A DNA stretch of 64,000 nucleotides from Clostridia bacterium. GTDB taxonomy: Bacteria > Bacillota > Clostridia > UMGS1810. The notes under the pieces are model-generated. The model saw only the letters and a list, made by a program, of their open reading frames with translations, did no database searches and was not told where the DNA came from. Both the position numbers and the translations under genes were made by a program. Positions 1,135-57,310 of this stretch are shown in pieces. The stretch spans positions 9,863-73,862 of the forward strand of contig JAZURE010000032.1 in the NCBI GenBank assembly GCA_045606045.1, read 5' to 3'. Every line of letters starts with the position of its first letter. Position 1 is the first letter of the stretch.

Positions 1135-3315
1135 TCAGTTATTTCTCGAAACTTCTACAATATCTTTGAGCCGTCCGAGCTTCTTTATAAGCACATTTAG
1201 CTGTTCGGTATTGGATACCTCTACGGAAACTTCCACAATACCAAGTCCTTCCTTTGTGGAGCGTGCGTTGAGCGTTCTTAAGGACACCTTGGTATCGTTT
1301 ACGATATTTGCAACCTCAAGCACAAGTCCGTCTCTGTCGGCACATACAATCTTGATTTTGGAAAGGTAAGAGGTGCTTGCATTGTTTTCCCAGGACACAT
1401 CTATAAGTCTGGCTCGCTCCTCCTCATTCTTGTGTATAGCAGCTATATTTATGCAGTCCTGACGGTGTATTGATACACCTCTGCCTCTTGTTATATAGCC
1501 TATTATCTTATCCCCGGGTACAGGGCTGCAGCATTGTGAATATCGTATAAGGCAGTTGTGTATGCCCTTAACAACAATTCCGTCGGAGGATGATTTCTTT
1601 GACTTAACGGGCGAATCCAAAGAAAGACTTACAGGAAGCAACTCATCCTTGGTATTGTTCTTTTTATATTCGTCTTTTAATTTGTTTATGACATTAGTTA
1701 CAACAAGACCGCCGTAGCCTATATTTGCATACAAGTCGTCCTCACTTGCATATCCATAGCGCTTTACAAGCTTGGTTATATATTCGGGCGAAGCTAAATT
1801 CAATGAAGAAAGTCCCTGACGGCGAATTTCCTTGTCTATCATATCCTTGCCGAGCAGGATGTTTTCCTCTCGGTTTTCCTTTTTGAACCATGTGTTTATC
1901 TTGTTTCGTGCCTGACCTGTCTTTACAATCTTGAGCCAGTCCATGCTTGGTCCGTGTACTGAGGATGATGTTACTATTTCCACTATATCGCCGTTTTTGA
2001 GCTGATATTCAAGCGGAACGATTTTGCCGTTTACCTTGGCGCCCTGCATCCTGTAGCCTATGGCAGAGTGTATGCTAAACGCAAAGTCAATGGGTGTAGA
2101 ACCCGCAGGGAAGGAGAGGACATCTCCTTTAGGTGAAAATACAAACACCTGATCTGTAAAAAGGTCTATGCGCAAGGTCTGCAGGAATTCCTCTTCGCTT
2201 TTGGCATCGCTTTGAACATCGAGTATTTGTCTTACCCATTGGAATTTTTGCTCTGTATCTATATCGTGTTTTTGCGGGTTTTCTTTGTACTTCCAATGCG
2301 CTGCGATACCGTTTTCGGCTACTTCGTGCATCTCCTTTGTGCGTATCTGTATTTCAAAGGGTCTGCCGTCCGTACCGATGACGGTGGTATGCAGGGACTG
2401 GTACATATTTGGCTTTGGCATTGCTATATAGTCCTTGAATCTGCCGGGCATGGGTTTGTACAGCTCATGTGCGGCACCAAGGGCAGCATAACAGTCGCTT
2501 ACCGTTTCTGTAACAATTCTTACTGCAAAAAGGTCATATATCTGGTCAAGAGTTTTATTCTGGGTGTACATCTTTCTGTATATGCTGTAAAAGTGCTTGG
2601 GCCTGCCGTCTATAGTACATTTGATGTTAAGGGTTTCAAGCTTCTGCTTTAAATCAAACTTTATAATGTCGATGTACTTTTCGCGTTCCTGACGCTTTTG
2701 GTTAATTCCTTTTACTATTTCAAAGTATGCGATAGGGTCAAGGTATTTAAGTGATAAATCTTCAAGTTCCCACTTGATTTTATACATACCGAGTCTGTGG
2801 GCAAGAGGTGCAAATACGCTTAAAGTTTCGCGGGCTTTTTCCCTCTGCTTTTCCTCGCTCATGCTTATGAGTGTGCTCATATTGTGCATACGGTCTGCGA
2901 ATTTTATTATTATAACTCGGATGTCGCTTGCCATGGCAAGAAACATTTTTCTGAGATTCTCCATATCTCTTTCTTCCTTGTTGGAGAATTCTATCTTTTC
3001 GAGTTTTGTAACACCGTCTACAAGCAAAGCCACCTGCTCACCAAAGAGTTTCTTTATATCCTCACTTGAATATTGCGTATCTTCAACTACATCATGGAGC
3101 AAAGCAGCGCATACGGAATCCACATCCATCTGCATTTCGGCAACAATAAGCGCTACTGCAAGGGGGTGGGTAATATAGGGCGTGCCGGAAATTCTCTTCT
3201 GGTCCTTGTGAGCCTCATATGCGAGATTGTATGCAGTGTGGATTTTTTCAATATTTGCTGATGGATTATTTAATTTTATAGTTTCTATAAGCTTTTCAAA
3301 AGTTTGCTTTGGCAT
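1135..3315 (-). CDS. relA: bifunctional (p)ppGpp synthetase/hydrolase RelA/SpoT family
   Basis: 726 aa with an HD domain (HDVVEDT), a RelA_SpoT synthetase core, and TGS and ACT-like C-terminal regions. Confidence 0.95.
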   Translation of the reverse strand: MPKQTFEKLIETIKLNNPSANIEKIHTAYNLAYEAHKDQKRISGTPYITHPLAVALIVAEMQMDVDSVCAALLHDVVEDTQYSSEDIKKLFGEQVALLVDGVTKLEKIEFSNKEERDMENLRKMFLAMASDIRVIIIKFADRMHNMSTLISMSEEKQREKARETLSVFAPLAHRLGMYKIKWELEDLSLKYLDPIAYFEIVKGINQKRQEREKYIDIIKFDLKQKLETLNIKCTIDGRPKHFYSIYRKMYTQNKTLDQIYDLFAVRIVTETVSDCYAALGAAHELYKPMPGRFKDYIAMPKPNMYQSLHTTVIGTDGRPFEIQIRTKEMHEVAENGIAAHWKYKENPQKHDIDTEQKFQWVRQILDVQSDAKSEEEFLQTLRIDLFTDQVFVFSPKGDVLSFPAGSTPIDFAFSIHSAIGYRMQGAKVNGKIVPLEYQLKNGDIVEIVTSSSVHGPSMDWLKIVKTGQARNKINTWFKKENREENILLGKDMIDKEIRRQGLSSLNLASPEYITKLVKRYGYASEDDLYANIGYGGLVVTNVINKLKDEYKKNNTKDELLPVSLSLDSPVKSKKSSSDGIVVKGIHNCLIRYSQCCSPVPGDKIIGYITRGRGVSIHRQDCINIAAIHKNEEERARLIDVSWENNASTSYLSKIKIVCADRDGLVLEVANIVNDTKVSLRTLNARSTKEGLGIVEVSVEVSNTEQLNVLIKKLGRLKDIVEVSRNN

Positions 3316-3341
3316 ATATATTCCTCCTTGGGCAACAATAA

Positions 3342-5324
3342 CTATGCCTTGTATTTTCTGTATGTTTCAGAGATGGTAAGGTCATTTTTACAGTCAAAAT
3401 TAATTCCTTTTGTTATTGTGTATTCATCATCAGTTGAAACAACATCCAGAATATTAAGTTCCTCAAAAACCCTGAGGGCAGTTTCAACCTTGGGGTTGAT
3501 AAACTTTAGTTTTAGGTATCTGTCCGCTTTAACAAAGTCATGTTTCCGGAATGTGTTGCATCCTGAATATATCTTGCTTCTTATATCAACAAATATGTTT
3601 TTCAGTTCATCATATGTGAGATTTTTGGATAAGGGAGAAAATTTTATATCGCGTATTATAAATTGCGGACGCACTGTGCCTCTAAATGAATTGATGCCCA
3701 GGTTTCCCACAACGGATATATAGTCGCCTACACAAAAATCCTTGATTGCTTCCGACATGGAAAATGCGGGAAATTCGCGTTTTGTGCCGTTTTGGGATAC
3801 AGTAATAAAAGCGTGCTTTTTGTTTTGCGTATATCTGATATCTTCTATACGAACATCCTTCACGCAGAATACAGGTGTGCGGTTTTCTATTCCGTACGGC
3901 TCAAGTACGGAGAGGGACTGTACATTGGCAAGCACAATATCCGACAGGGATATAACGCAGTCTACCTCTATAGAGGGAGTGCGCACCTCCTCTGTAAGAA
4001 GCGGTGCCATGTAAGAATCAATTTTTTTATAGAATTCTTCTGCACTGTCGGGCTTTAGTGTAAAACCTGCAGCAAGCTCATGACCGCCAAATCTTATCAA
4101 TTCTTCCGAACAAGCGGTAAGAGCATCAAAAAGGTTTATTCCCTTTATACTTCTGCCGGAAGCTTTGCCTGTACCATCGGGATTTATGCTTACTACGGCA
4201 CTTGGTTTGTAGTACTTTTCTGTAATCTTTGAGGACACAATACCTATTATTCCGTGCGCCCAGTTCTCTTTTGCCACAAGAATGAAATTTTTGCCTGAGA
4301 GCTTGTCTCTTTCTATGATTTCAATACATTCGTCAAATATTTTCTGCTCCGTTGTTTGTCTTAATTTATTGCAGTTGTCAAGCTCTTCTGCAAGAGAAAG
4401 GGCAGTCTTGTCGTTTGCTTCCAGAAGAAGCTTTACAGAATTCTGCGCATTTTGCATTCTTCCTGCGGCATTAAGCCTTGGAGCAATGGCAAAGCTTATA
4501 TCGGCAGAGGTTATCTCGTCCTGCTTTATTCCAGCAACAGTCATTACTGCCTTTATGCCGGAATTATCTGTGATTTTAAGCTTTTCAAGACCTTTGGAAA
4601 CTATATAACGGTTTTCATCGCGCAGGGGCACCATATCCGCTACAGTTCCTATTGCAACTATATCGCAATATCTGTAAAATATGTCTTTGTCCATACCTGA
4701 ATGTGCATATATCAGCTTAAAGGCAACACCTACACCTGCAAGTGCATCAAAAGGATAGGAGGCACTTGTGATTTTAGGATTGATTACTGACACAGCCTCC
4801 GGAAGAGTTTCCTTTAGGGCATGGTGGTCGGTTATTATTACATCTATCCCTTGCTCTTTTGCATATGCTACTTCCTGTGTGGCGGTAATGCCTACATCCA
4901 CAGTTATTATAAGTGTAATGTGTTGCTTTTTTAATGTATCAATTGCGCCGCAGTTCATACCGTAGCCCTCTTGTATTCTGTCGGGTATATAGTATATTAC
5001 ATCAGCACCAAGCGATTTTAGATAATCAAAAAGAATATAGGTTGCACTAATGCCGTCGACATCATAGTCGCCGTATACGGCAATTTTTTCCTTGTTTTTA
5101 AGCGCAATATTAATTCTGTCTACAGCCTTTTTCATATCGCTTAGCAGAAAGGGATTGTATAAAAGGCTCTCATCTGCAGACAAAAAACTTTTTGCATCAT
5201 CAAAGCTGAATCCTCTTGCACAGAGTATATTTGCCACAAGAGGTGAAACATTAAGATTTTCTGATATACGCAGTGCTTCTGTATTGTCTATATTTGGCAT
5301 AAGCCATTTTTTTGAGTTATACAA
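3342..5324 (-). CDS. recJ: single-stranded-DNA-specific exonuclease RecJ
   Basis: 660 aa with DHH-family motifs (GDYDVDGISA, ITDHH) and a DHHA1-like GGHxxAAG motif. Confidence 0.9.
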   Translation of the reverse strand: MYNSKKWLMPNIDNTEALRISENLNVSPLVANILCARGFSFDDAKSFLSADESLLYNPFLLSDMKKAVDRINIALKNKEKIAVYGDYDVDGISATYILFDYLKSLGADVIYYIPDRIQEGYGMNCGAIDTLKKQHITLIITVDVGITATQEVAYAKEQGIDVIITDHHALKETLPEAVSVINPKITSASYPFDALAGVGVAFKLIYAHSGMDKDIFYRYCDIVAIGTVADMVPLRDENRYIVSKGLEKLKITDNSGIKAVMTVAGIKQDEITSADISFAIAPRLNAAGRMQNAQNSVKLLLEANDKTALSLAEELDNCNKLRQTTEQKIFDECIEIIERDKLSGKNFILVAKENWAHGIIGIVSSKITEKYYKPSAVVSINPDGTGKASGRSIKGINLFDALTACSEELIRFGGHELAAGFTLKPDSAEEFYKKIDSYMAPLLTEEVRTPSIEVDCVISLSDIVLANVQSLSVLEPYGIENRTPVFCVKDVRIEDIRYTQNKKHAFITVSQNGTKREFPAFSMSEAIKDFCVGDYISVVGNLGINSFRGTVRPQFIIRDIKFSPLSKNLTYDELKNIFVDIRSKIYSGCNTFRKHDFVKADRYLKLKFINPKVETALRVFEELNILDVVSTDDEYTITKGINFDCKNDLTISETYRKYKA

Positions 5325-15028: not shown

Positions 15029-15103
15029 GCGGGAGTGGCTCAGTGGTAGAGCGTCACCTTGCCAAGGTGAACGTCGCGAGTTCGAATCTCGTCTTCCGCT
15101 CCA
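15029..15103 (+). tRNA. tRNA-Gly (anticodon GCC), CCA encoded
   Basis: Manual cloverleaf: acceptor GCGGGAG/CTTCCGC, D arm GCTC..GAGC, anticodon stem TCACC/GGTGA with loop TTGCCAA, and T arm GCGAG-TTCGAAT-CTCGT. Confidence 0.92.
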
Positions 15104-15196: not shown

Positions 15197-15204
15197 ATAA
15201 TTGT

Positions 15205-15273
15205 CCTTGCAACTGACGGAACATAGATAACTATGAGGGAGCAAGGTCATGTTAAATGCCGACCGTCTGGGCT
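15205..15273 (+). promoter_or_regulatory. ZTP (pfl-motif) riboswitch aptamer
   Basis: P1 CCTTGC/GCAAGG encloses ACUGACGGAAC, a small hairpin (AUAG-AUAA-CUAU) and GAGGGAGC. The 3' subdomain has hairpin GGUC..GACC followed by GUCUGGGC. GACGG in the 5' part can pair with CCGUC in the 3' part, which is a covarying pseudoknot relative to the GGCG/CGCC I recall from ZTP aptamers. The pfl gene context matches. Confidence 0.7.
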
Positions 15274-15302
15274 CCTGTATTTTGAGGAGCCTTTTATTTT
15301 TT
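15270..15302 (+). terminator. riboswitch expression-platform terminator upstream of pflB
   Basis: Stem GGCTCCT/AGGAGCC followed by TTTTATTTTTT. The 5' arm overlaps the conserved CUGGGC of the aptamer. Confidence 0.7.
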
Positions 15303-15318: not shown

Positions 15319-17544
15319 ATGACATATCACAGAGGTTTTAAAGAGGGAAACTGGAACACAGCAATAGATGTTGCTGATTTTATAAAGCTTAATTACACAT
15401 ACTATGCGGGAAATTCCGATTTCCTTGCAGGTACTACCGAAAGAACAGATAAGGTAAAAGCGAGGGTAGAAGAACTCCTCGTCGAAGAAAACAAAAACGG
15501 CGGTGTACTGGAGGTGGATACAAATGTTGTATCCTCCATACTTTCGCATGCTCCAGGCTACATTATAGAGGGTGAGGATATCATTTTGGGTCTTCAGACA
15601 GACAAACCCTTAAAGCGTGCCGTAAATCCATTTTCGGGCTATCGAAATACAGTACAGGCCTGCGAAGCATACGGCTATGAGATAGGTGACAATGTCAAGG
15701 ATGAGTTCAAATACAGAACAACACACAATACAGGTGTTTTCAGAGTATATACAGATACAATGAGAAAGGCGAGACATGCGGGTATATTAACAGGTCTTCC
15801 CGATGCTTATTCCAGAGGCAGAATCATAGGAGACTACCGCCGAATTGCTCTTTACGGTATGGATTATCTTATTAAGCAGAGAAAACTCGACAAACAGAGA
15901 ATAAGCGAGCGCCTCATGACAGCAGAAAACATTCAGCTTCTGGAAGATATACAAAAGCAGCTTGAATTTATGACACAGCTTATTACCATGGCGGAACAGT
16001 ACGGATGCGATATTTCCCGTCCTGCCAACAATGCAAAAGAGGCTATACAATGGCTCTATTTTGGATATTTGGGCGCTGTAAAGGAGCAGAACGGTGCAGC
16101 AAACAGTATTGGTAGAATTTCTTCTTTCATAGATATCTACATAGAAAGAGACTTAAAAGAGGGTACACTGGATGAACTGGGTGCTCAGGAATTAATAGAT
16201 GACCTTGTTCTTAAAATGCGTCTTGTAAGACATTTGAGAACTCCTGAATACAACGACCTTTTTGCAGGAGATCCTGTGTGGGTTACCTGCTCGCTTGCAG
16301 GGGCTACCACAGAGGGTGTGCCTATGGTTACAAAGACCTGCTACAGATTCCTGCAGACTCTCTACAACCTCGGACCAAGTGCAGAACCCAATATTACAGT
16401 TTTATGGTCTCAAACGCTTCCCGAAGCATTCAAAGAATTTTGTGCGAAGGTTTCAATAGACACCGACTCTATCCAGTACGAAAATGATGATGTTATGCGC
16501 ACTGATTTTGGCGATGACTATGCCATAGCTTGCTGTGTATCTGCTATGAAAACAGGTAAGCAGATGCAGTTCTTCGGTGCAAGGTGCAACCTTGCAAAAG
16601 TACTCTTGCTTTCGTTAAATGGCGGTAAGGACGAGGTGTACGGCGAACAGATTGCTCCGGAAGGCAGAGTATTTGACGAGAGTGTTCTGAATTACAATAG
16701 TGTAATGGAAGCATTCAAAAGCTATGCTTCATGGATGGCAAAGCTCTATGTGAATACAATGAATATCATCCATTACATGCACGACAGATATGCCTACGAG
16801 AGACTCATGATGTCACTTCATGATGTAGAGCCGGAAAGACTAATGGCATTTGGCATAAGCGGTCTTAGTGTCCTTGTAGACAGTCTTAGCGCCATAAAAT
16901 ATGCCAAGGTTACACCGATAAAAGACGAAAGAGGAATCATAACAGACTTTAAGTGTGAGGGCGAATTCCCCAAATACGGAAATGACGATAACCGCGTGGA
17001 TGAGATTGCAAAATGGGTAACAGAATTTTTCTATACCGAGCTTTGCAAAACACCCACATACAGAAATGCTATCCACACATTATCCATACTCACTATTACA
17101 TCAAATGTAGTTTATGGCAAAAAGACAGGCGCTACTCCCGATGGCAGAAAGAAAGGCGAGCCTTTCGCTCCCGGTGCAAACCCCATGCACGGACGTGACT
17201 GCGAGGGTGCACTTGCATCACTTAATTCCGTTGCCAAGATAGATTATGCCTGCTGCAGAGATGGTATTTCCAATACATTCTCCATTACACCTGATTCTCT
17301 GGGTGTGGACGATGAAGACAGAACAAAGAAGCTTGTGGCTATCCTTGACGGTTATTTTGTTCAAAAAGCTCACCATCTTAATGTGAATGTATTAAACAGA
17401 CAAAAACTCATAGATGCCATGAATGATCCTACACTTTATCCGTCTCTTACCATACGTGTAAGCGGATATGCTGTAAACTTCAATAAGCTTACAAAGGATA
17501 AGCAGTTGGAGGTTATTTCCAGAACATTCCACGAAAAAATGTAG
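15319..17544 (+). CDS. pflB: pyruvate formate-lyase (formate C-acetyltransferase)
   Basis: 741 aa with the glycyl-radical motif RVSGYAVNF near the C-terminus and an active-site CC dyad (IACCVSAM). Confidence 0.95.
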
Positions 17545-24521: not shown

Positions 24522-24529
24522 AATTTCTG

Positions 24530-24557
24530 CGGAGTATCCATTCGGATGCTCCGTTTT
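24530..24557 (+). terminator. intrinsic terminator after tyrS
   Basis: Stem CGGAGTATCC/GGATGCTCCG followed by TTTT. Confidence 0.7.
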
Positions 24558-24584
24558 GATTATTTACAGGTAATTTTTGGCTTA

Positions 24585-24600
24585 AGATACAAGTATTTTA
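24585..24600. repeat. attL core (AGATACAAGTATTTTA)
   Basis: Identical 16-mer at 57446..57461. It lies exactly at the host/phage junction. Confidence 0.8.
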
Positions 24601-24620
24601 TGAAAAGTCAAGGGGTAAAT

Positions 24621-24642
24621 GCGAAAAAGTGCAAAAAATTTT
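24621..24642. repeat. 22-bp terminal inverted repeat, copy A (GCGAAAAAGTGCAAAAAATTTT)
   Basis: The perfect reverse complement is present at 26418..26439. A partial inverted copy lies at 57413..57430. Confidence 0.8.
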
Positions 24643-24655
24643 TTAATTAGCATTT

Positions 24656-25696
24656 TTAGGCGGATAAAACGCTGTTTATACAAGCCTCGTATATCTCGGC
24701 AGAGCTATAATAGTTAAATATCCCTCTCGGGTAGTTATTTATCCACTTTTCGAGCTTGCGGGTGTCTGCGGGAGTAACTTTCTCAAAGCTAATTCCTTTC
24801 GGGTAGTGTCGGCGTATCATTTTATTTTGATTTTCATTTGAGCCGCGCTCGTATGAGCTGTACGGGTGGCAATAGTATATCTCGGTACGGTTTCCTTTTC
24901 GGCGGCAGCTCCGCTCTATGCCGAGGTAGTCGGAAAACTCGGAGCCGTTGTCTATTGTTATAGTTTGAAATACCTTTGAGAAATTCGCGCCGTATGCCCG
25001 CTCGATACCGTCAAGAGCTTTTATAACGCTTGCGGCTGTGTGGTCTTTCATTATGCGGATAATTTCGTAACGGGTGTACCGCTCCGTAAGTACAAGAAAA
25101 GTCTTTTTTGTGCCTTTCTTGCCGACTACACAATCCATTTCCCAATGTCCGAAAGAGCAACGCTCCGCAACCTCTGCGGGGCGTTTTTCTATGCTCTTAC
25201 CCTGCGGAGCTCTGTTTGGCTTTACTCGAGCGTATTTTTGTTTATCCTTATTTTTCTTTACGGGCAAGTCCTTATTTGTTATAGTGAGGAAAATACCGTC
25301 CTCGATATATCTATAAAAAGTCGTCTTTGATATGCTCGTATTGAATTGTAAGCCCTTGCGCTTAATTTCGCCCAGGATAGCCCCAGGAGCGTATTTTTCT
25401 ACCGATACTTTATACTCAAGGTATGTAGCGTACTCGTGGTCGGTACCTATTTTTAAGCCCGCTCCTTTTGCTTTAAGGTTGGCGCGGTATTTTTCCTCCG
25501 CAATATCGGGGCTGTAGCGTTCCTCCTCGGTGTAGTCGCTGTTGAGGTGGGTATAAACGCCCCGCTTTAATTCTCTATATATTGTGCTGATGTGCACGCC
25601 GAGCTCGGCGGCCATTTGTGCAGGCTTAACTCCGACTTTCTGCCAAGCCTCTATTTTTAGTCTATCTGTAAAAGTAAGGTGTTTATACTTGCTCAT
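24656..25696 (-). CDS. IS30-family DDE transposase/recombinase
   Basis: 346 aa with an N-terminal HTH (LTFTDRLKIE...LGVHISTIYRELKRG) and a DDE core (GHWEMD ... TIDNGSEF ... NENQNKMIRRHYPKG). Confidence 0.9.
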   Translation of the reverse strand: MSKYKHLTFTDRLKIEAWQKVGVKPAQMAAELGVHISTIYRELKRGVYTHLNSDYTEEERYSPDIAEEKYRANLKAKGAGLKIGTDHEYATYLEYKVSVEKYAPGAILGEIKRKGLQFNTSISKTTFYRYIEDGIFLTITNKDLPVKKNKDKQKYARVKPNRAPQGKSIEKRPAEVAERCSFGHWEMDCVVGKKGTKKTFLVLTERYTRYEIIRIMKDHTAASVIKALDGIERAYGANFSKVFQTITIDNGSEFSDYLGIERSCRRKGNRTEIYYCHPYSSYERGSNENQNKMIRRHYPKGISFEKVTPADTRKLEKWINNYPRGIFNYYSSAEIYEACINSVLSA

Positions 25697-25718
25697 AATA
25701 AAATCACTCCGTTTTATT
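25692..25718. repeat. 27-bp direct repeat covering a translation initiation region (copy 1)
   Basis: CTCATAATAAAATCACTCCGTTTTATT is identical to 56956..56982. On the minus strand it reads AATAAAACGGAGTGATTTTATTATGAG. Confidence 0.85.
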
Positions 25719-25751
25719 AAAATAAAATAGAGGGAGCCGTAAAGCTCCCTC
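25719..25751 (-). terminator. intrinsic terminator between the RHH gene and the transposase gene
   Basis: Minus-strand stem GAGGGAGC/GCTCCCTC followed by a U-rich tract (TATTTTATT). Confidence 0.55.
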
Positions 25752-25758
25752 CTTGATA

Positions 25759-25944
25759 CTACGCTAAAAAGCCCTCAATAGCCTTTTTTATAACTTGCGC
25801 TTGCGGCACGCCCTCGGCTGCGCATTTTTCCTTGAAAGCCTCCGCCATTTCTTTAGGGACTCTAACCGCTATTACATCATAAGTTTTTTGATTATATCGA
25901 GTTTTAACCTCTGTAGATGTTTTAGTTTTTCTTTTCTCTGCCAT
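25759..25944 (-). CDS. ribbon-helix-helix (CopG/Arc-like) DNA-binding protein
   Basis: Start moved to MAEKRKTK after an AAGGAGG RBS. The sequence ...YDVIAVRVPKEMAEAFKEKCAAEGVPQAQVIKKAIEGFLA fits a beta-strand plus two-helix pattern. Confidence 0.65.
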   Translation of the reverse strand: MAEKRKTKTSTEVKTRYNQKTYDVIAVRVPKEMAEAFKEKCAAEGVPQAQVIKKAIEGFLA

Positions 25945-25958
25945 AGCCTGCCGCCTCC

Positions 25959-26126
25959 TTAAAATAATTCGTTGGTAGTTACATACTCCCACAGCTCGTC
26001 TATTGTCGCGCAAATATCCTTTGAAACATCAAAGGCAAGCTCGAGCTTTCCGCTGTCGGTCTTTACCGTCCATTTTGTAGCCGACTCCGTTACGGTGTAG
26101 GTTTTTTCGCCTTTTACAATAACCAT
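25959..26126 (-). CDS. hypothetical protein (55 aa)
   Basis: Hand-translated: MVIVKGEKTYTVTESATKWTVKTDSGKLELAFDVSKDICATIDELWEYVTTNELF. It has an AGGAGG RBS and is below the ORF-track size cutoff. Confidence 0.45.
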   Translation of the reverse strand: MVIVKGEKTYTVTESATKWTVKTDSGKLELAFDVSKDICATIDELWEYVTTNELF

Positions 26127-26213
26127 AGCGTCCTCCTATTGATTTTTATATATATCTATGCTATAATAGGACTTACGAGAGGGGCGATTGCTCGCCCTCT
26201 CTCTGCCTTGAGC

Positions 26214-26351
26214 TTATTTGCTCTCGGGTTTTGCCTTGCTCGGCTTTGGCTTTACAAGTGTTATAGTAACTTTGACTCGTTCCACCGTGTCGTTATTCTG
26301 TAACGCTTTCGCCAGGTCTTGCAGGGCTTTTTCTATGCCTTGACTTTCCAT
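26214..26351 (-). CDS. hypothetical protein (45 aa)
   Basis: Hand-translated: MESQGIEKALQDLAKALQNNDTVERVKVTITLVKPKPSKAKPESK. It has an AAAGGAGG RBS and is the first ORF after the consensus promoter. Confidence 0.45.
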   Translation of the reverse strand: MESQGIEKALQDLAKALQNNDTVERVKVTITLVKPKPSKAKPESK

Positions 26352-26378
26352 AGGCTTATTACCTCCTTTCTGTATATT

Positions 26379-26407
26379 ATTATATCATACTGCTTGCAGT
26401 ATGTCAA
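26379..26407 (-). promoter_or_regulatory. consensus sigma-70-type promoter (minus strand) of the small-ORF/RHH/transposase operon
   Basis: The minus strand reads TTGACA, a 17-nt spacer, then TATAAT, about 20 nt upstream of the AAAGGAGG RBS. Confidence 0.7.
26386..26403. promoter_or_regulatory. 18-bp palindromic operator candidate inside the promoter spacer
   Basis: CATACTGC-TT-GCAGTATG has perfect 8-bp arms. It fills the -35/-10 spacer of the minus-strand promoter. Confidence 0.55.
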
Positions 26408-26417
26408 TAGTTATTTG

Positions 26418-26439
26418 AAAATTTTTTGCACTTTTTCGC
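26418..26439. repeat. 22-bp inverted repeat, copy B
   Basis: AAAATTTTTTGCACTTTTTCGC is the exact reverse complement of 24621..24642. It lies between two divergent promoters. Confidence 0.8.
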
Positions 26440-26447: not shown

Positions 26448-26476
26448 TTTACTATTTTCTCGGTTTGTGTTATAAT
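26448..26476 (+). promoter_or_regulatory. sigma-70-type promoter (plus strand), divergent from the 26379..26407 promoter
   Basis: TTTACT, a 17-nt spacer, then TATAAT, with TGT immediately upstream of the -10 (extended -10-like). Confidence 0.55.
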
Positions 26477-26482
26477 ATAGGC

Positions 26483-26658
26483 ACCACACAAAAATTATAT
26501 AATGGTTACACTATTGAAAGTGCCTCATTTCGTCAAAAAATGTAGGCTCTACTTTTCGCATTTTCGATAGTGTAGAAAAATTTTTGTGTGGTAGCAAATC
26601 GGAGCTTGCGTTTTTTATGCGTGTAGCTGCGATATGGGCTACACGCATTTTTATTTTT
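26483..26658 (+). ncRNA. highly structured leader or small RNA ending in an intrinsic terminator
   Basis: Perfect 14-bp stem 26483..26496/26579..26592, with a nested 14-bp stem 26506..26519/26562..26575 (two G-U pairs). Then hairpin ATGCGTGTAGC/GCTACACGCAT (26617..26648) followed by TTTTATTTTT, right before the RBS of the 26676 gene. Confidence 0.5.
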
Positions 26659-26675
26659 AGGAGGCTATAACATCT

Positions 26676-26969
26676 ATGAAAAAATTAAAAACCTGGCAAT
26701 TAGTATTACTTATTATCTTTTATCCCGTAGGGCTTGTATACTTTATTGTATGGCTGTGCAAAAGAAACAAGGTGCAAGCGGTACCCGCTCCGAAAAAAGA
26801 CGAAAGCTATTATTTTGATTTAGTATTTGTAAATAAGGGCAGTAAAGTATACCATAACGACCAAATGTGCGCCGAGAGCCGTAATTGTAACTCTGTAGAA
26901 ATGCACGAAAAGGACGCTATAAAAAAAGGGTTGCACCGTTGCAAAAGATGTTACGGCAATATAGAATAA
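26676..26969 (+). CDS. membrane-anchored small protein with a Cys/His-rich C-terminus (Ada-type zinc-finger-like); one of only two plus-strand transcription units in the prophage
   Basis: 97 aa with an N-terminal TM helix (LVLLIIFYPVGLVYFIVWL) and a C-terminal ..YHNDQMCAE..C....HRCKRC region. Confidence 0.6.
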   Translation: MKKLKTWQLVLLIIFYPVGLVYFIVWLCKRNKVQAVPAPKKDESYYFDLVFVNKGSKVYHNDQMCAESRNCNSVEMHEKDAIKKGLHRCKRCYGNIE

Positions 26970-29549: not shown

Positions 29550-29916
29550 TTTCGGAGCCCTCCTCGCTGTCGGGAGGTGTTGGAAATTTTACATCAAAGG
29601 GAAAGCCTGCTTGTGTAGGCAAGTCCCTTAATGCCTGGCGATACTCCGCCCAAGCTCCCTTGAATATTTTTGAAAGCGAGGTAATAAACTTTGTCGCAGA
29701 GGAGAGGTCGAGCCCGAGGCGGTCAAGGGACATTTGCGCGTCGCTGTTGTCGAGCAGCTTATTACGAATTTTGCGGGCAAGCGCTGCCGCCTCCTCCTCG
29801 TTACGCTCCTCACAAGCGGCGACGTATGCCGCTTTTAATATTTCCTCGAGTTCTGCTTTTTTAGCTGCCGCCATTGCCTCAACCTGGGCGAGGCGTTTGT
29901 GGTAATTGTTGTTCAC
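29536..29916 (-). CDS. tail-fibre assembly/chaperone-like protein
   Basis: 126 aa. The ...RNKLLDNSD...W.EYRQALRDLP...P motif resembles phage tail assembly chaperone-like domains. Confidence 0.45.
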   Translation of the reverse strand: MNNNYHKRLAQVEAMAAAKKAELEEILKAAYVAACEERNEEEAAALARKIRNKLLDNSDAQMSLDRLGLDLSSATKFITSLSKIFKGAWAEYRQALRDLPTQAGFPFDVKFPTPPDSEEGSENELT

Positions 29917-30943
29917 GGTTTGAGCCCTCCAATTCCTTATAGAATTTAATCATTTTACGCCGCTCGTGGTATGTATTCCCGCGAGCTGCATTTGCAAGCC
30001 AAGAAACGAGCGACTCGCGCGTAGTGCCTGGCGCATAGTCGCCGCTTTGCTCTTTGGCATATAGCTTTTTGAGCTTTCGGCGTTGCTTTCCTTGTTTCTT
30101 TTTATCCATTTTGCGTATAATCGCTCCCGAGTCGGTAACGATAAAACGCCATTGCAGCAGCTTTACGCCCTGGCGGAGTGGATAAAGCGAGGTTTTGCCG
30201 TTGAGCTGTAGCCCGATAGCGTTTACTTGCTTTTCTATCTCTGCGCGGCAATGCTGCAAAAATTCCTTGTCCTGGTGGACTAACACAAAGTCGTCCATAT
30301 ACCGTATATAATGCTTTACTCGGAGCCGCTCTTTTATAAAGTGGTCGAGGTCGTCGAGTACAGCAAGAGCTACGAGCTGCGATACCTGGGAGCCGAGCCC
30401 GATACCCGTATCGCCGCCGAAAGAGTCTACAATTTCGCAGGCTCGAGCCGCTATTTGCGTGTCGGTAACGCGCTTACATATTGCAGCCTTTGCTATATCG
30501 TGGCGTATACTCGGGAAATAGTGGTGTATATCACATTTAAGCACCCACCCGTCGCAGCCGTGAGCTTTATAATAACGGCGTAGATGTGCCGTCATACGGT
30601 TTAATGTATAATCGACTCCGCGCCCGCGCAGGCAGGCGCAATTATCGGTTATAAAAGACTTTGTTATCTGCTCGTAGAGTCCGTTATCACATAGCGAGCG
30701 TGGAAATTGTCGGTCTTTTAAGCGAGTTGCTACAATTTCCCGTCGTTTCGGCTCGTATATGGTAAAGTGTTGGTACCTATCTATTCTATATTTGCCGTTT
30801 AAGAGGCTTTCTCTCAATCGGTAAGTATTTTTTAAGGCGTTGCCCTCATAGCCTACGGTACTATCTTTCCAACGGATATTACGGCAGCTTTGTTTTAACC
30901 CCTTGTAGAGGTTGTCAAAAGATATAACTTGATTATAAGACAT
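29879..30943 (-). CDS. diversity-generating retroelement reverse transcriptase
   Basis: 354 aa with RT motifs including IRYMDDFVLV (YMDD) and an SQ-containing motif 4 (GLGSQVSQL). It is immediately 3' of the TR. Confidence 0.9.
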   Translation of the reverse strand: MSYNQVISFDNLYKGLKQSCRNIRWKDSTVGYEGNALKNTYRLRESLLNGKYRIDRYQHFTIYEPKRREIVATRLKDRQFPRSLCDNGLYEQITKSFITDNCACLRGRGVDYTLNRMTAHLRRYYKAHGCDGWVLKCDIHHYFPSIRHDIAKAAICKRVTDTQIAARACEIVDSFGGDTGIGLGSQVSQLVALAVLDDLDHFIKERLRVKHYIRYMDDFVLVHQDKEFLQHCRAEIEKQVNAIGLQLNGKTSLYPLRQGVKLLQWRFIVTDSGAIIRKMDKKKQGKQRRKLKKLYAKEQSGDYAPGTTRESLVSWLANAARGNTYHERRKMIKFYKELEGSNREQQLPQTPRPG

Positions 30944-31237
30944 ATTAAAAAGGCGGACGCATAAAAAGGACTACCTCGTAAGGTACCTTTGTCGCCCGCA
31001 ATATTCCCTCCTTTTCGGAGGTAGGACGGTCGCTCCTTGTGTGAGCTGCGCTGCTTTGGTCTTTCGACTACTTGAAAACGGGCTTTTCTCACAATCGGGG
31101 GCGACTCCGTTAGCATTGTTCGCGTTGTTGTTGTTCAACGCTCCCGAGGTATTCACATTGCGCTCGTTGTTCGCGTTCCCAGGGTTAGGGGAACGGAGCC
31201 AACAGTTACGCGCCGAGCCAAAAAAATAGCAACCGCC
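30944..31237 (-). ncRNA. DGR template RNA (TR plus spacer region between avd and the RT gene)
   Basis: Noncoding interval that contains the TR and a downstream spacer with hairpins (for example CCTCCGAAAAGGAGG). The exact extent is inferred. Confidence 0.6.
31091..31219 (-). repeat. DGR template repeat (TR)
   Basis: 129 bp collinear with VR1 and 96 bp collinear with VR2. All differences fall on TR adenines on the coding strand. The frame is AAC-rich (NANNERNVNTSGALNNNNANNANGVAP). Confidence 0.92.
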
Positions 31238-31648
31238 CTACATTTCTTTGTACTTTTCCTTGTCGGACTTTATCCAGGCTTTTAATAAGTCGTCTGTCTT
31301 GAGTATTAACCCCGTCCAAAACTCTACTTTATCGCCCGAAATATAGCCCGCTCCGTATGCGTCGTCGATAAGGTCTAATAGAGCGTCAAGGTGCGCGTGC
31401 GCTTTGACTTGCTCCATACGGCGGTAGTTGTATTCCTCGGCATTTGTTACATATACCGAGTTCGCGTGCCGTATGCAAACACAAGCCTCGCGTACCTCCG
31501 CAGCTATCGGAGCCGCATACAGCCAACGGGTGCTCTTTGGAAAGTGTTTATCATTCTTTAATTGACTTAAAGAATAGTTTTTAAGCTCCCGCGCTTTATT
31601 TAATACTTGCAGCTTGCCCTCGCCTCTGTCGCCTTTCCTAACGCTCAT
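31238..31648 (-). CDS. avd: DGR accessory variability determinant (Avd), four-helix-bundle type
   Basis: 136 aa, located between the target gene and the TR, with a basic helical sequence ending ...LLKAWIKSDKEKY. Confidence 0.75.
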   Translation of the reverse strand: MSVRKGDRGEGKLQVLNKARELKNYSLSQLKNDKHFPKSTRWLYAAPIAAEVREACVCIRHANSVYVTNAEEYNYRRMEQVKAHAHLDALLDLIDDAYGAGYISGDKVEFWTGLILKTDDLLKAWIKSDKEKYKEM

Positions 31649-31666
31649 ATTAAAACCTCCTTTTAA

Positions 31667-31684
31667 CCGCCTCTACCGAGGCGG
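31667..31684 (-). promoter_or_regulatory. GC-rich hairpin downstream of VR1 (DGR homing hairpin/cruciform candidate)
   Basis: CCGCCTC-TACC-GAGGCGG: 7-bp stem, 4-nt loop, 20 nt from the VR1 end. Confidence 0.7.
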
Positions 31685-31692
31685 ATTGTCGA

Positions 31693-33708
31693 TTATGCGA
31701 TTATACAAGCGGGGGCGACTCCGTAAGCATTGCTCGCGCTGTTGCCGTACAACGCTCCCGAGGTATCCACATTGCGCTCGTGGTACGCGTGCCCAGGGTT
31801 AGGGGAACGGAGCCAACAGTTACGCGCCGAGCCCGCCGCGTCGTATTTGATACGCTCGGTATCGGTTAAGCCCTCGTAAAACTCTAACAGCGTACCGTCC
31901 TTATAGGTCGCGCTGTCGTAGGTACCGTATATTTCGGGACGAGAAAGTAAGAAAAATCTGTCCTTTAATGTGTATACCTGGTTTGTGGCAAACTCTGTAC
32001 CGTCGAGGCTGTTTACCTCAAAAATAGAGTTAGCACGGCAAGGGATAGCCGCAGGCTGCACTACCGCCAAAAAGTCGGCAGGCAAGCCGCGCACAAAGCC
32101 GTTATAACTTGTATTCCAAGAGGGCGGACGGTCAAAAACAGTAGTAGGAGCCCATACGCCGCCCGCTGCTGCGTCGCTGTTTAACCATTGACGAGCCGCG
32201 CTCTGTGCGTAGTTATTCGAGCCGTACCGTATGCGGTGCGTGTGGTTAAGGTTTTCTACGGTACCGTCAGCTACGCCGAGGCTTGTACCGTCTGCGGACT
32301 CTGTTACAGCTACGCTCTCAATAACCGCCGTAGCTGCATTGCTTGCGTATGTACTGATTTTTGTATCGGTGCTTTGCTTTTGGTAGCCCCAGGGGAACAT
32401 AATTACGCCGCCTGCGGGTACGGGTTTTGTAAGTGTAAACGAAAGCGTTTTGCCTCCGCCGTATGTCGTGTCGTAGCCTGCAAGCAGGGTAAAATTATAA
32501 GTGCCTGCGGGTAATTCCTCGGCAGCATAATAAAGAGCCTCCGTAGCGTCAAAAACAAAGCTACGATATGTACCGTTTGCGGTGCCGTATACATACTTTG
32601 TTTCGAGCGTCATTGTATGAGTGAGCTTTTTATTTGCTGCGATATGGTTGTCGTGTCCTCTTACAACCCAGGTAATAACCGCTCCCGTAACGGAGTCCTC
32701 TGTAGTAAACTCATAACCAACGGGAAAGAGTGTAGCTCCAAGCCCGAGGCGTACAGCGTTTTTAACATCTTCCCAGGTCTTAATAGCCGTAAGAGTGTCA
32801 ATATGTACGCTTGTTTGCACGCCCTCTCTGTCTGTTACGGTAATAGTTGCTCCCGTAGCCGTCTGCTCTGCGGAAATATTAACATTTTCCGCGCCCTCGG
32901 CTGCCTCTGCTGCTGCGTTAGCCGCGTCCGCTGCCTTGTTGGCATTTTCTGTAGCAGTATTTGCGTTGTCGGTAGCAGTATTTGCCGCTCCCGCTGCGGT
33001 GTTTGCCGCTCCCGCTGCCGCGTCCGCTGCTGTTTTCGCGGTGTTGGCTGCGTCTGTCGCTGCGCGAGCTCCCATTGCTGCCGTATCGGCGTTTGTGGTC
33101 GCTGTATCTGCATTGTTAGCCGCTGTATTAGCCTTTTTTGCGGCTGCGTCTGCCGCTGCTTTTGAGGTATTCGCAGCCTCGGCGGCTCCGTTGGCTGTTT
33201 CAGCTGCTGTTTCGGCTGTTTCGAGTGCCTCTGTAGCGTCCTCTACGGCTGCGGCTGCATCTTTTGCTGCCTGGTCGGCTGTAGTAGCCGCTCCGTTAAT
33301 CTTATTAAAAGCGTCTATAAGGGCGTTATACTCGTCGGAGGAGGCGGGAGCGTCCTTGTCAAAGGCTGCGCGCTCAACATCTATATAAAATGTCTGAGAG
33401 CTCAAGAGCTCCTCTCCCTTATAAAGTCCGATTTCCGCAGCAGCTACGCCAGGAGCAGCGAGAGCTTGCGCTGTGAGCTCGGCAATAATAACGCCGTTTT
33501 CGATTTTAGCGTCGTTTAATACCGTGTGCCCGTCCGCTTTTGTGAGCTGCAAGCGAGGAGTAATGCCCTCCTCGAGTGCGTAGCTCTGTCCGCCGTTAAG
33601 TGGCGTAATTTCAAGAAAACGGGTTTTATTATCGTTCTGCTTTGCAAAAACGGTAATAGGCATTGTATCGCGTCCAAAATCGAGGTTTATTTTTTGCTTA
33701 ATCTCCAT
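31693..33708 (-). CDS. tail fibre/receptor-binding protein, DGR target 1 (BppU-like N-terminus, Ala/Asn/Thr-rich stalk, C-terminal CLec-type variable domain)
   Basis: 671 aa. The N-terminus (MEIKQKINLDFGRD..) resembles the baseplate upper protein N-domain. The C-terminus ...CWLRSPNPGHAYHERNVDTSGALYGNSASNAYGVAPACIIA contains VR1. Confidence 0.85.
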   Translation of the reverse strand: MEIKQKINLDFGRDTMPITVFAKQNDNKTRFLEITPLNGGQSYALEEGITPRLQLTKADGHTVLNDAKIENGVIIAELTAQALAAPGVAAAEIGLYKGEELLSSQTFYIDVERAAFDKDAPASSDEYNALIDAFNKINGAATTADQAAKDAAAAVEDATEALETAETAAETANGAAEAANTSKAAADAAAKKANTAANNADTATTNADTAAMGARAATDAANTAKTAADAAAGAANTAAGAANTATDNANTATENANKAADAANAAAEAAEGAENVNISAEQTATGATITVTDREGVQTSVHIDTLTAIKTWEDVKNAVRLGLGATLFPVGYEFTTEDSVTGAVITWVVRGHDNHIAANKKLTHTMTLETKYVYGTANGTYRSFVFDATEALYYAAEELPAGTYNFTLLAGYDTTYGGGKTLSFTLTKPVPAGGVIMFPWGYQKQSTDTKISTYASNAATAVIESVAVTESADGTSLGVADGTVENLNHTHRIRYGSNNYAQSAARQWLNSDAAAGGVWAPTTVFDRPPSWNTSYNGFVRGLPADFLAVVQPAAIPCRANSIFEVNSLDGTEFATNQVYTLKDRFFLLSRPEIYGTYDSATYKDGTLLEFYEGLTDTERIKYDAAGSARNCWLRSPNPGHAYHERNVDTSGALYGNSASNAYGVAPACIIA
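31705..31833 (-). repeat. DGR variable repeat 1 (VR1)
   Basis: 129 bp with 11 mismatches to the TR, all at TR adenines. Confidence 0.92.
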
Positions 33709-50191: not shown

Positions 50192-50971
50192 TTACTGTCG
50201 CTCATAATAACCTCGCTTTCTACTCCGTTTCGGAGTCGGCTTTTTATACATTTTGACGGTCAAATAATAGCCGCCGTTAATTTCGTTGTAGTACGGCTTA
50301 ACCTCTGCCAGGGAGTAACCCTCGTAGAGTCGCTCGAGCTCCTCGTGCATATCGTAGCCGCTGTCGTGAATTTCTTTGACTTTGTATTGCGGCAGCCTGC
50401 CGTCCCGCTCCGAGGTTTTAGGCTGCTCAAGGTTTCGACTTGCACACCAACGCTTGCCGAGTATAGGCTCCTTTATGAGATACTTTGCAATGCCGACTAT
50501 GCCGTACTCGTCAAACTGTAAAGGCTTTGCTGTCGTATAGCCTCGGCTCCATATTTCCGCAAGGGTGTTTATATCTACGCCGCCGCTCATAACGATATGG
50601 TGGTGCAGGCGTGCGCTTTTCTTGCCGATTTCGGTAACTGCGACATATTTTAAGTCGGGTAAACCGTTCTTTTTGCGGTACCGCTTGACTCTGCGGAGGA
50701 AATTTTGCATTTCTCTTTGTGCGTCCTCGGGAGAGCCTGGGTAGTTCTCGTCGCTGTATGTAAGGTCAAACCTTATGTCCTTTTTTGTAAAGTTTGTATT
50801 AAGCAAGCGTATTAACTTGCGCTCGGCGTTTCTTTGGTTAAGCCTTTTTTGAGTTTCCGAGGTCGGCTTACGCTTTTTGCTCCGTCCTCGCTGATATTCA
50901 AAAACGGGGAATATATCTACCTCCAAATACTCGCCGCAATAGTGTTTCTTTTCTCTGTATAGGCAACGCAT
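50192..50971 (-). CDS. HUH-superfamily rolling-circle replication initiator-like protein
   Basis: 259 aa with motif 1-like IRFDLTY, the HUH motif RLHHHIVM, and the Tyr motif GIAKYLIKE. Confidence 0.65.
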   Translation of the reverse strand: MRCLYREKKHYCGEYLEVDIFPVFEYQRGRSKKRKPTSETQKRLNQRNAERKLIRLLNTNFTKKDIRFDLTYSDENYPGSPEDAQREMQNFLRRVKRYRKKNGLPDLKYVAVTEIGKKSARLHHHIVMSGGVDINTLAEIWSRGYTTAKPLQFDEYGIVGIAKYLIKEPILGKRWCASRNLEQPKTSERDGRLPQYKVKEIHDSGYDMHEELERLYEGYSLAEVKPYYNEINGGYYLTVKMYKKPTPKRSRKRGYYERQ

Positions 50972-53644: not shown

Positions 53645-54334
53645 TTACTTAAAGATTGAGGGATTGAAAATACAAGCGGGGGCGACTCCGTAAGCACAGT
53701 GCGCGTTGTAGTTGCCCAACGCTCCCGAGGTATTCACAATGCGCTCGCTGTACGCGTACCCAGGGGTGCAGCTCCAGGGTGTTATAGTCCATACCCAGGT
53801 ATCGTATTTAGGCACGAAAGCTCTATACTTTCTGTAAAGGTCGTCCGAAAGCAAAGCGATAAAGTCCTCGGAGGTACCGTAGCTCTTGTCGCCGTTGTCC
53901 GCTGTTAAGTCGGAAATAATCGGTATAAGGTCGCCCTTGTCAAAATTCTTTATGTATTCCTCGTTAAGGAATTTGCGGAGGGTAGAGCTGCGCCAATCGT
54001 TGCAGCAGTTCTCGTCGTAAGGCATTTCGGGCTCGAGCCTCTTTGCCGCTACAGCAAGTACGCCGCCCTGCTTATAGCCCAGGGCTACAAACTCCATACC
54101 GTTATAATTAAAGTGCTCGCCCGCCGTTGGTATCTTGTCGCTTATAGGCTCGGGCTTGCCCTCTCCGTTCTCCTGGTCGTCCTCGTATTCGTCCTCATAC
54201 TCCGCAGGGGTAAAAATGCCTGCAAAAGCGAGGGAAACAACCGCCTCGGCTCTTTTCTTGTTGTCCTCGGGGTTTGGGTTGGTCGCTATGTCGTCGCAAA
54301 GGGACTCTATAGCTGTTAAAATGCTGCTGTTCAT
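53645..54334 (-). CDS. DGR target 2: small acidic protein with a C-terminal CLec-type variable domain, no signal peptide seen
   Basis: 229 aa with an acidic linker (EYEDEYEDDQENGEGKPEP). The C-terminus ...WSCTPGYAYSERIVNTSGALGNYNAHCAYGVAPACIFNPSIFK contains VR2. Confidence 0.8.
   Translation of the reverse strand: MNSSILTAIESLCDDIATNPNPEDNKKRAEAVVSLAFAGIFTPAEYEDEYEDDQENGEGKPEPISDKIPTAGEHFNYNGMEFVALGYKQGGVLAVAAKRLEPEMPYDENCCNDWRSSTLRKFLNEEYIKNFDKGDLIPIISDLTADNGDKSYGTSEDFIALLSDDLYRKYRAFVPKYDTWVWTITPWSCTPGYAYSERIVNTSGALGNYNAHCAYGVAPACIFNPSIFK
53672..53767 (-). repeat. DGR variable repeat 2 (VR2), remote from the cassette
   Basis: 96 bp collinear with TR 31091..31186, with 13 mismatches, all at TR adenines. 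Confidence 0.88.
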
Positions 54335-54799: not shown

Positions 54800-54977
54800 T
54801 TTTTAATTCCTCCCGTATATTTCTCTTTATGGTCTGCAAACAATCCTCCCCAGGCTCACGCATACAGCCTTGCGTATCTCCGAGCATAAAGGAGCAAGGG
54901 CAGATGTCGCAATCATTGCCGTCGCTTGTCATTTCAAAAATTATTTCTGCGACTCTTTGCAATTCTTTTTCGTTCAT
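54792..54977 (-). CDS. small Cys-rich hypothetical protein
   Basis: 61-aa ORF. Confidence 0.4.
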   Translation of the reverse strand: MNEKELQRVAEIIFEMTSDGNDCDICPCSFMLGDTQGCMREPGEDCLQTIKRNIREELKNV

Positions 54978-57242: not shown

Positions 57243-57280
57243 ACGCGCTTAACTCCTTTCTTTTTATCTTTGGAGAGAGT

Positions 57281-57310
57281 AAGGAGCGGAGGACGCGCCC
57301 TCCGCTCCTT
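57281..57310. promoter_or_regulatory. perfect 12-bp-arm palindrome upstream of the first early gene (operator or 5'-UTR hairpin)
   Basis: AAGGAGCGGAGG-ACGCGC-CCTCCGCTCCTT. Confidence 0.5.

Follow-up and report, generated by a model that had tools for sequence, protein, structure and literature searches.

An IS30-family transposase as the probable integrase of a prophage in a Clostridia bacterium: exact ends, a 15-bp target duplication and a host promoter beside the right end

The stretch of DNA analysed here (the window, 64 kb of contig JAZURE010000032.1 from a Clostridia bacterium) carries, between positions 24601 and 57446, a prophage of 32,846 bp whose only visible recombinase is a transposase of the IS30 family. 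Nearly all of the prophage genes lie on the minus strand, and both termini equal the ends of related elements base for base. The phage modules were recognised with Pfam, by matches to terminase, portal, protease, capsid, tail, holin, amidase, reverse transcriptase, rolling-circle-type Rep and methylase. All translated open reading frames (ORFs) of at least 40 amino acids (aa) from 24.5 to 57.5 kb were scanned with Pfam; domains of the types Phage_integrase, Resolvase and Recombinase were absent, as was any CI/XRE-type repressor domain. An earlier reading of the window, made from the letters alone and called here the sequence-only reading, had named the transposase as the only recombinase, and the scan agrees with it: structural, packaging and lysis genes of a phage are present without the domains of a tyrosine or serine integrase.

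The transposase (24656-25696, minus strand; 346 aa) lies at the left end of the prophage and reads outward at full length, its stop codon standing 54 bp from the terminus at 24601, and it is the inferred integrase. It has the N-terminal helix-turn-helix (HTH) domain and the rve/DDE core of its family above the family threshold: Pfam HTH_38 is matched at E = 4e-9 and rve at E = 8e-8, NCBIfam NF033563 ('IS30 family transposase') at 225 bits, for a cut-off of 80, over profile positions 1-266 of 267, and phrog_4646 at E = 1.8e-137. Seven phage homologues all keep the candidate catalytic residues D188, D249 and E288. The same module holds an ORF for an Arc/CopG-like regulator of the ribbon-helix-helix (RHH) type (25759-26013, minus strand; RHH_1 in Pfam, Arc-like repressor PHROGs), whose true start is probably the ATG at 25944, and two small ORFs that are kept in relatives, one of 55 aa (25959-26126, minus strand) and one of 45 aa (26214-26351, minus strand). 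Its promoter (26379-26407, minus strand) consists of TTGACA, 17 nt and TATAAT with an upstream TG, a 12/12 match to the consensus, and is arranged in the same way in the Faecalibacterium phage FP_Lagaffe (hereafter Lagaffe) and in relatives. A terminator-like hairpin (25729-25752, minus strand) separates the RHH gene from the transposase gene, which suggests that the transposase is made only by read-through from this very strong promoter. As the sequence-only reading had described, a perfect 22-bp inverted repeat, GCGAAAAAGTGCAAAAAATTTT, brackets the transposase gene, the RHH gene, the two small ORFs and their promoter in a unit of 1.8 kb; it occurs exactly twice in the window (24621-24642, plus strand, and 26418-26439, minus strand), where chance would give no such pair, and the pair extends to 34 nt at 85%. 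An Rfam scan of the window gave no match in or near this module.

At the far end of the prophage lies a gene that the sequence-only reading had missed. It encodes an 83-aa protein with an HTH_38 domain only (56991-57242, minus strand; HTH_38 E = 5e-12; phrog_11420, E = 5.5e-36), reads inward, and corresponds to what has been called a truncated, DNA-binding-only IS30; with 39% identity to residues 5-78 of the transposase, it is a paralogue of the transposase N-terminus. Such a pair of genes has been reported before. In a tblastn search of GenBank phages the transposase matched Lagaffe first (56.6% identity over the full length, annotated 'Integrase, IS30 transposase family'), followed by Clostridium phage Saumur, phages nd4 and nd12, Dulem virus 34 and several virome contigs. 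Cornuault et al. (Microbiome 2018; PMC5883640) state in their main text that the Lagaffe integrase belongs to the IS30 family and that virions are made, and they note flanking direct repeats with surprise. The main text of Wirbel, Hickey et al. (Nature 2025; PMC12823448) defines 'IScream phages' as integrase-less prophages with an outward IS30 transposase and an inward, truncated IS30 without a catalytic domain, reports 22 of them from the authors' data together with 1,780 candidates from a catalogue of gut viruses (MGV), demonstrates circles and DNase-protected DNA for a Blautia hansenii phage, and compares the layout with that of a composite transposon; that main text is silent on inverted repeats, target sites, direct repeats, promoters and Lagaffe.

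The prophage agrees with this definition on every point. The likeness of the window to the IScream phages, as their main text describes them, comprises an integrase-less tailed prophage, an outward full-length and an inward HTH-only IS30, hosts among gut Clostridia, and the presence of the same phage in different host contexts. To this description the window adds a 15-bp duplication, an oriented insertion close to a promoter, a junction promoter and an internal repeat copy, none of which contradicts it. With Lagaffe the prophage shares the order of lysis genes, one opposite-strand gene, small regulators, transposase, short gap or junction, HTH_38 gene and early genes, as well as a diversity-generating retroelement (DGR); Lagaffe differs in its structural genes, in its size of 48 kb, in its end tips (GG/CG-GAAAAG, against T-GAAAAG / T-AAAAAG) and in the roughly 10 bp that its left end and internal copy share, against 22 bp in the window. 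The architecture, unusual as the sequence-only reading had called it, is so by comparison with classical phages, but the class had already been published (PMC5883640, PMC12823448). Tailed phages with an IS30 transposase are thus in print, and by these comparisons the prophage is one more example of them; what comparison adds are the exact ends, the 15-bp duplication, the rule on promoter distance, the split of the junction promoter and the operator-like repeat. It is very probable that the element at 24601-57446 is an intact temperate tailed phage of this Lagaffe/IScream class, and that its integrase would be a domesticated DDE transposase of the IS30 family. That the transposase module does the work of an integrase in a temperate phage with a tail, one of the two readings offered earlier, finds support in the virions of Lagaffe at 56.6% transposase identity, and in relatives that occupy many sites and form circular junctions.

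The true ends of the element were located by comparison. IMG/VR was scanned first with the sequence that directly follows the transposase gene and next with that of the opposite end, and one genome per species was scanned with a degenerate pattern that matches both ends; in all about 100 related ends were compared. On the transposase side, the end of every relative (the L-end) reads ...TTGACTTTTCA and then diverges into unrelated DNA; on the HTH-gene side, the end of every relative (the R-end) begins TA(A/T)AAAGTTTTA(C/G/T)AATAAGTGCGAAAGG. The corresponding L-end of the window is the terminal inverted repeat TGAAAAGTCAAGGGGTAAATGCGAAA at 24601-24626, a terminus that abuts differing host DNA in the relatives, and the R-end is the repeat TATAAAGTTTTATAATAAGTGCGAAA, read on the minus strand, at 57421-57446. 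Compared over 26 bp (24601-24626 against 57446-57421) the two match at 17 positions and have the motif TAA(A/G)TGCGAAA in common. The element has, in short, terminal inverted repeats of the 20-30 bp customary in the IS30 family at its very ends, as these are set by the divergence of relatives into host DNA. Each end also carries half of a promoter, the L-end an outward-facing -35 box (TTGACT, 24606-24611, minus strand) and the R-end a -10 box (TATAAT, 57431-57436).

Two features that the sequence-only reading had treated as ends fall into place beside these termini. The outer copy of the 22-bp repeat (24621-24642, plus strand), taken earlier for the left end, begins 20 bp inside the true terminus at 24601; it forms the inner, putatively protein-binding part of the L-end, is conserved in the L-ends of relatives and contains the tandem half-sites ATGCGAAAA and AGTGCAAAA. 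A third, degenerate copy near the right end ('copy C') does exist, but it is more aptly seen as a portion of the 26-bp right terminal repeat, and it also supplies the 5' arm of a hairpin. Its conservation in relatives holds up, in that the motif is kept and changes in step at both ends in four groups: GCGAAA (the window, Lagaffe), GTAACAAA (Dulem virus 34, MT835543), GCACA (nd4) and GCAGAA (nd12). Because the motif changes in step at both ends across subtypes, it is a putative protein-binding site. The hairpin (57395-57433, minus strand) is followed by a T run and lies directly downstream of the R-end -10 box; it is conserved, and its arms covary between subtypes. Transcripts from a promoter at the junction might start inside its 5' arm and escape termination, and transcripts reading in would terminate. 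The whole leader between the -10 box and the HTH_38 gene (57243-57446, minus strand) is strongly structured (z = -5.65), and a second hairpin within it (57274-57317) shows compensating changes in relative L066. In another relative, L115, the HTH_38 gene follows closely after the transposase gene, only about 1.8 kb from the tip.

Immediately outside the termini stand two copies of a 15-bp target-site duplication, GATACAAGTATTTTA, at 24586-24600 on the left and 57447-57461 on the right. The sequence-only reading had called the two borders attL and attR; the 16-bp direct repeat there (AGATACAAGTATTTTA, 24585-24600 and 57446-57461) is the 15-bp duplication with one coincidental base, and not an att core. 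Wherever both ends of one insertion were at hand, the length of the duplication was measured by comparison of the flanks: among 18 window-type insertions (the window included) it is 15 bp in 14, 14 bp in three and 16 bp in one. Further 15-bp duplications were found at L122/L123, a pair of ends matched by eye, and at two Lagaffe-type insertions, which brings the total to 21 independent insertions with 14-16 bp. The sequence of the duplication differs at every insertion site compared, and the 15 bp belong to the host and not to the phage, because circles of relatives have only 2-3 variable bases between the same termini.

These observations bear on the possibility that the 16-bp repeat is the core of attL and attR, recombined by a site-specific enzyme that has escaped recognition. 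A perfect repeat at both borders is what such an enzyme would leave, and the predicted attB lies, by eye, within a long palindrome; site-specific integration would, however, use the same core in attP and at every attB together with a dedicated recombinase, whereas 21 independent insertions each have a different repeat of 14-16 bp, just 2-3 bp separate these termini in the circular junctions of relatives, and no candidate recombinase emerged from the Pfam scan. We regard this explanation as extremely improbable. When attP was rebuilt with the 16-bp repeat as its core, the gap between the -35 and -10 boxes came to 30 nt, against 17 nt in the real junctions of relatives, and this candidate was rejected.

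The lineage of the window is mobile, because L043/L094 and L122/L123 have ends identical to those of the window but occupy other loci; more widely, relatives close to the window share its ends at many host sites, each with its own duplication. We infer the activity of this particular prophage from its intact ends, its intact DDE triad and its mobile close relatives. Two deletion derivatives among the relatives keep both tips and a duplication of 14-15 bp: L066 (positions 1352-3875; 2.5 kb) retains the HTH gene, part of a terminase and some early genes but has no transposase, and L015 (the whole contig) measures about 7.6 kb. Both are candidate non-autonomous elements that a resident phage could move. 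L066, with tips only 2.5 kb apart, was considered as a miniature insertion sequence (IS) and rejected as a deletion remnant without the transposase gene. The predicted empty site of the window, TTTTGGCTTAAGATACAAGTATTTTAGCCAAAA (24560-24600 joined to 57447-57470), is a long imperfect palindrome between the terminator of tyrS (24529-24554) and the promoter of thrC, and several other targets look partly palindromic by eye.

Insertion also follows a rule relative to host promoters. Non-redundant flanks were searched for sigma-70-type promoters directed outward from the phage. A promoter of this kind whose -35 box stands 24-28 nt from the tip is present in 42 of the 56 R-end flanks, nearly all at 25-27 nt and 26 of them at exactly 26 nt, and in only five of the 50 L-end flanks. 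In the window it is the host thrC promoter (57472-57500, plus strand; TTTACT, 17 nt, TACAAT), which reads away from the prophage with its -35 box 25 nt from the tip; because the duplicated 15 bp are the outer part of these 25 nt, the host promoter keeps its native upstream region. Across the flanks compared, insertion is oriented: beside the R-end stands a host promoter of the sigma-A type, directed away from the phage, and the R-end lies 25-27 bp upstream of its -35 box. This fixed distance suggests that the phages read the promoter, or the RNA polymerase bound to it, as the conjugative element TnGBS does. A third end subtype (TAAAAAGTCAAGCGTTAAATGCGAAAAATATCAC...), seen in L051, L059, L068 and L127 and with a transposase about 61% identical (in L059 and L068), behaves differently: in three of the four (L051, L059 and L068) a promoter-like flank lies beside the transposase-side end, the opposite of the main group.

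The circular junctions of relatives read TTGACTTTTCA-(TT/CA/AA/TT)-TAAAAAGTTTTA(C/G)AAT, with 2-3 variable coupling bases between the ends, and Lagaffe-type circular junctions were observed as well. The joined ends assemble a promoter from the L-end TTGACT (-35) and the R-end TA(C/G/T)AAT (-10), facing the 83-aa HTH gene and the early genes, with a spacing of 17 nt in ten of 11 circular junctions and of 16 nt in the remaining one (hand count). For the window, whose circle would have the junction ...CCCCTTGACTTTTCA-NN(N)-TATAAAGTTTTATAATAAGTGCG..., 5 nt, two coupling bases and 10 nt give the same predicted spacing of 17 nt.

It remains to place the internal copy of the 22-bp repeat (26418-26439, minus strand), which lies between the -35 boxes of two divergent promoters, 10 nt from that of the transposase operon and 8 nt from that of the divergent promoter (26448-26476, plus strand; TTTACT, 17 nt, TATAAT, with a TG). 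In 13 window-type relatives the internal site lies 1.8-2.4 kb inward of the tip. Its place is in every case immediately upstream of the operon's -35 box, and 16-22 nt of it are identical to the relative's own L-end; past it, all 13 run on into conserved phage sequence and never into host DNA. The terminal 20 bp of the true ends are absent beside the internal copy, including the tip that both real ends share (T-AAAAGT). Lagaffe has tandem GCGAAAA half-sites at the corresponding place. The divergent promoter leads into a strongly structured RNA (26482-26660, plus strand; minimum free energy -61.4 kcal/mol, z = -7.1; no Rfam family) that ends in a terminator (26617-26648) and is followed by the sole plus-strand ORF of the phage, which encodes a membrane-like protein of 97 aa (26676-26969). 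The lysogen may express this RNA as a small RNA or as a leader.

With a complete transposase operon and its own promoter between perfect 22-bp repeats, and with no other recombinase at hand, the 1.8-kb unit might be taken for an autonomous IS30-like element with passenger genes, one that landed beside the end of the prophage or supplanted its original integrase, after which the prophage could no longer move. The second of the two earlier readings was of this kind. An autonomous element should have its repeats at its ends, a duplication of its own and free-standing copies. Here the outer repeat begins 20 bp inside the real terminus, the unit lacks a duplication of its own (the sequence-only reading had likewise seen no 2-3 bp duplication at its flanks, which we confirm), and the DNA past the inner repeat is conserved phage sequence in the 13 relatives. 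No free-standing copy of the unit was found by blastn, in which GenBank phages match only the transposase gene (65-71% identity) and PLSDB plasmids match nothing. Every L-end locus that has a close-type transposase and at least 2.5 kb of inward sequence continues in the same order, with transposase, small ORFs, a tail-completion-like protein, amidase and holin, and Lagaffe has the same layout at 56.6% protein identity and is an active phage. Wherever a relative offers enough sequence, the module thus stands in the same place with its genes in the same order, and the ends of the prophage are intact and match those of mobile relatives, which speaks against immobility. An autonomous insertion sequence is very improbable here.

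A more limited role as a transposon end deserves separate treatment. The sequence-only reading had the one left repeat pair with either a near or a far right end, and the internal copy might be a working inside end, as in a composite transposon, with which the L-end occasionally pairs to move the 1.8-kb module alone. Its orientation fits, the internal copy and the R-end both being inverted relative to the L-end; its inner 22 bp are identical to the L-end, to which it is closer than the real R-end is; and the comparison with a composite transposon has been made in the main text of the IScream paper (PMC12823448). But the internal copy lacks the terminal 20 bases and the shared tip, it never borders host DNA in the 13 relatives, the L-end loci examined yielded no product of this pairing, no free-standing unit was found, and the deletion derivatives L066 (2.5 kb, without a transposase gene) and L015 (7.6 kb) both end at the ordinary L and R tips. 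We consider a working inside end improbable; by these comparisons the internal copy is not an alternative transposon end.

A copy without any present function, decaying as a relic of the inner end of an ancestral IS, would account for the distant subtypes that lack a clear third copy and for the few window-type relatives in which the internal copy has diverged (L048, L027/L090). It would not predict that 16-22 nt stay identical to the relative's own L-end in 13 relatives while the surrounding spacers differ, that the position relative to both -35 boxes is fixed, or that Lagaffe retains its half-sites at the same place; a functionless relic is accordingly unlikely. The reading that we prefer is that the internal copy is an operator or accessory site for the HTH domain of the transposase, for the 83-aa paralogue or for both, which we put, on the geometry of the site, at roughly even odds. 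It would resemble the operator and enhancer of phage Mu, and may derive from the inside end of an ancestral IS.

Taken together, we propose the following course of events. The transposase would bind the motif shared by both ends of the circular genome and insert it with a 15-bp stagger upstream of a promoter (here that of thrC), sparing the upstream region of that promoter. Integration would split the junction promoter and silence the early operon, and formation of the circle would rebuild the promoter and turn the early genes back on. This split promoter could replace a classical repressor switch, because the Pfam scan detected no CI/XRE-type repressor domain. The joint scheme, in which a 15-bp stagger, insertion by reading a promoter or RNA polymerase, and a split early promoter in place of a repressor switch are combined with a Mu-like operator/enhancer circuit that controls the supply of transposase, is a tentative one, to which we give rather less than an even chance.

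Several points weigh against this scheme or its parts. The 15-bp duplication of the window, and the 14-16 bp of the 21 insertions, are far from the 2-3 bp of target that IS30 elements usually duplicate, the stagger being about five times as long as theirs, and the chemistry may differ from that of canonical IS30. Exact-protein look-ups of the 83-aa protein and of TyrS did not find the circle or the empty site of this prophage, and two metagenome scans gave no matches to the predicted empty site TTAAGATACAAGTATTTTAGCC or to the tyrS-side flank. Its activity, as said, is drawn from its intact parts and its relatives; promoters were called by consensus matching alone; and the promoter-splitting switch, like the operator role of the internal copy, is proposed from geometry. 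Dulem virus 34, MT835543, nd4 and nd12 have no clear internal third copy of their subtype motif, so that the site may matter in only part of the family. Finally, the 15-bp duplication, the oriented insertion near promoters and the split early promoter were not found in the main texts of PMC5883640 and PMC12823448, whose figures or supplements may show some of them.

Known systems offer partial parallels for most of these features. IS30 of E. coli has a transposase with HTH and DDE parts and terminal inverted repeats of about 26 bp. Its reactive intermediate has abutted ends about 2 bp apart, like the 2-3-base junctions of the relatives, and it makes 2-bp duplications. It is only 1.2 kb long, in contrast to the 32.8-kb phage cargo, the 15-bp duplication and the promoter-relative targeting seen here. 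In an engineered chimeric phage, the IS30 transposase is reported to be able to replace the integrase (Kiss, Szabo and Olasz, PNAS 2003, as cited in the papers on this class). Long duplications are known within the IS30 family from IS1630 of Mycoplasma fermentans, which makes duplications of 16, 23, 25 and 26 bp (PMC3317919) and, according to the title of Calcutt 1999 cited there, targets and duplicates inverted repeats; the target of the window is likewise part of a palindrome. IS1630 differs in being a plain IS and in the variable length of its duplications, against 15 +/- 1 bp here. TnGBS, which like its related ISs has a Mutator-like DDE transposase, inserts itself ahead of sigma-A promoters, 15-17 bp upstream of their -35 box (PMC3942029). 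Like the prophage it uses a DDE transposase in place of the integrase of a large element and inserts in an oriented manner at a fixed distance (25-27 bp from the tip here), but the transposase belongs to an unrelated superfamily, the element is conjugative and the distance is another. The staphylococcal element ICE6013 moves as a large element through a circular form by means of an IS30-like transposase. The sequence-only reading had named it as a precedent, a reasonable analogy but not the closest one: ICE6013 is conjugative and makes short duplications, and the phage examples now published are nearer. Phage Mu is a tailed phage that integrates by DDE transposition, has an internal site between divergent promoters that acts as operator and transposition enhancer, and has a small regulator that shares its DNA-binding domain with the transposase N-terminus. 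Mu is offered as an analogy only, as its transposase is of another family and it replicates by transposition and packages host flanks, whereas the present phages have packaging of the cos/terminase type and circular junctions.

Other features of the prophage and its surroundings are reported for completeness. The DGR occupies 29879-33708 and 53645-54334. It comprises a reverse transcriptase (29879-30943; RVT_1), a template repeat (31091-31219), an accessory-like ORF (31238-31648) assigned from its size and position with no family match, and a variable repeat (31705-31833) at the C-terminus of a 671-aa BppU_N/DUF6273 tail fibre. All 11 mismatches between template and variable repeat fall at template adenines, and a second, more diverged copy (72%) lies 22 kb off, at the end of a 229-aa DUF6273 protein. 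A rolling-circle-type replication initiator (50192-50971, minus strand; Pfam REP_ORF2-G2P; phrog_3584, E = 6e-82) is here carried by a tailed phage. The Pfam name (ORF2/G2P) ties the family to small phages with single-stranded DNA; one of them, Spiroplasma phage R8A2B, has an IS30-like transposase too. In the C5 cytosine methylase (54974-55927, minus strand) the Pfam profile is matched only from position 38, beginning at the first residues of the protein, and the C-terminus resembles, by eye, the usual N-terminal motif; its domain order may be circularly permuted. The host region outside the prophage includes a tRNA (15029-15100, plus strand) and then a ZMP/ZTP riboswitch (15199-15279; 55.8 bits) upstream of an ORF at 15319-17544.

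For the family as a whole, the 15-bp duplication explains the direct repeats that were reported as surprising for Lagaffe in 2018, and the exact boundaries can be used to annotate prophages of this kind, which integrase-based prophage finders miss. The promoter-distance rule describes where these abundant gut phages integrate, and gives a reason why a single phage is able to settle in many hosts although they share no conserved att site. The split junction promoter is a possible lysogeny switch, one that would need no repressor.

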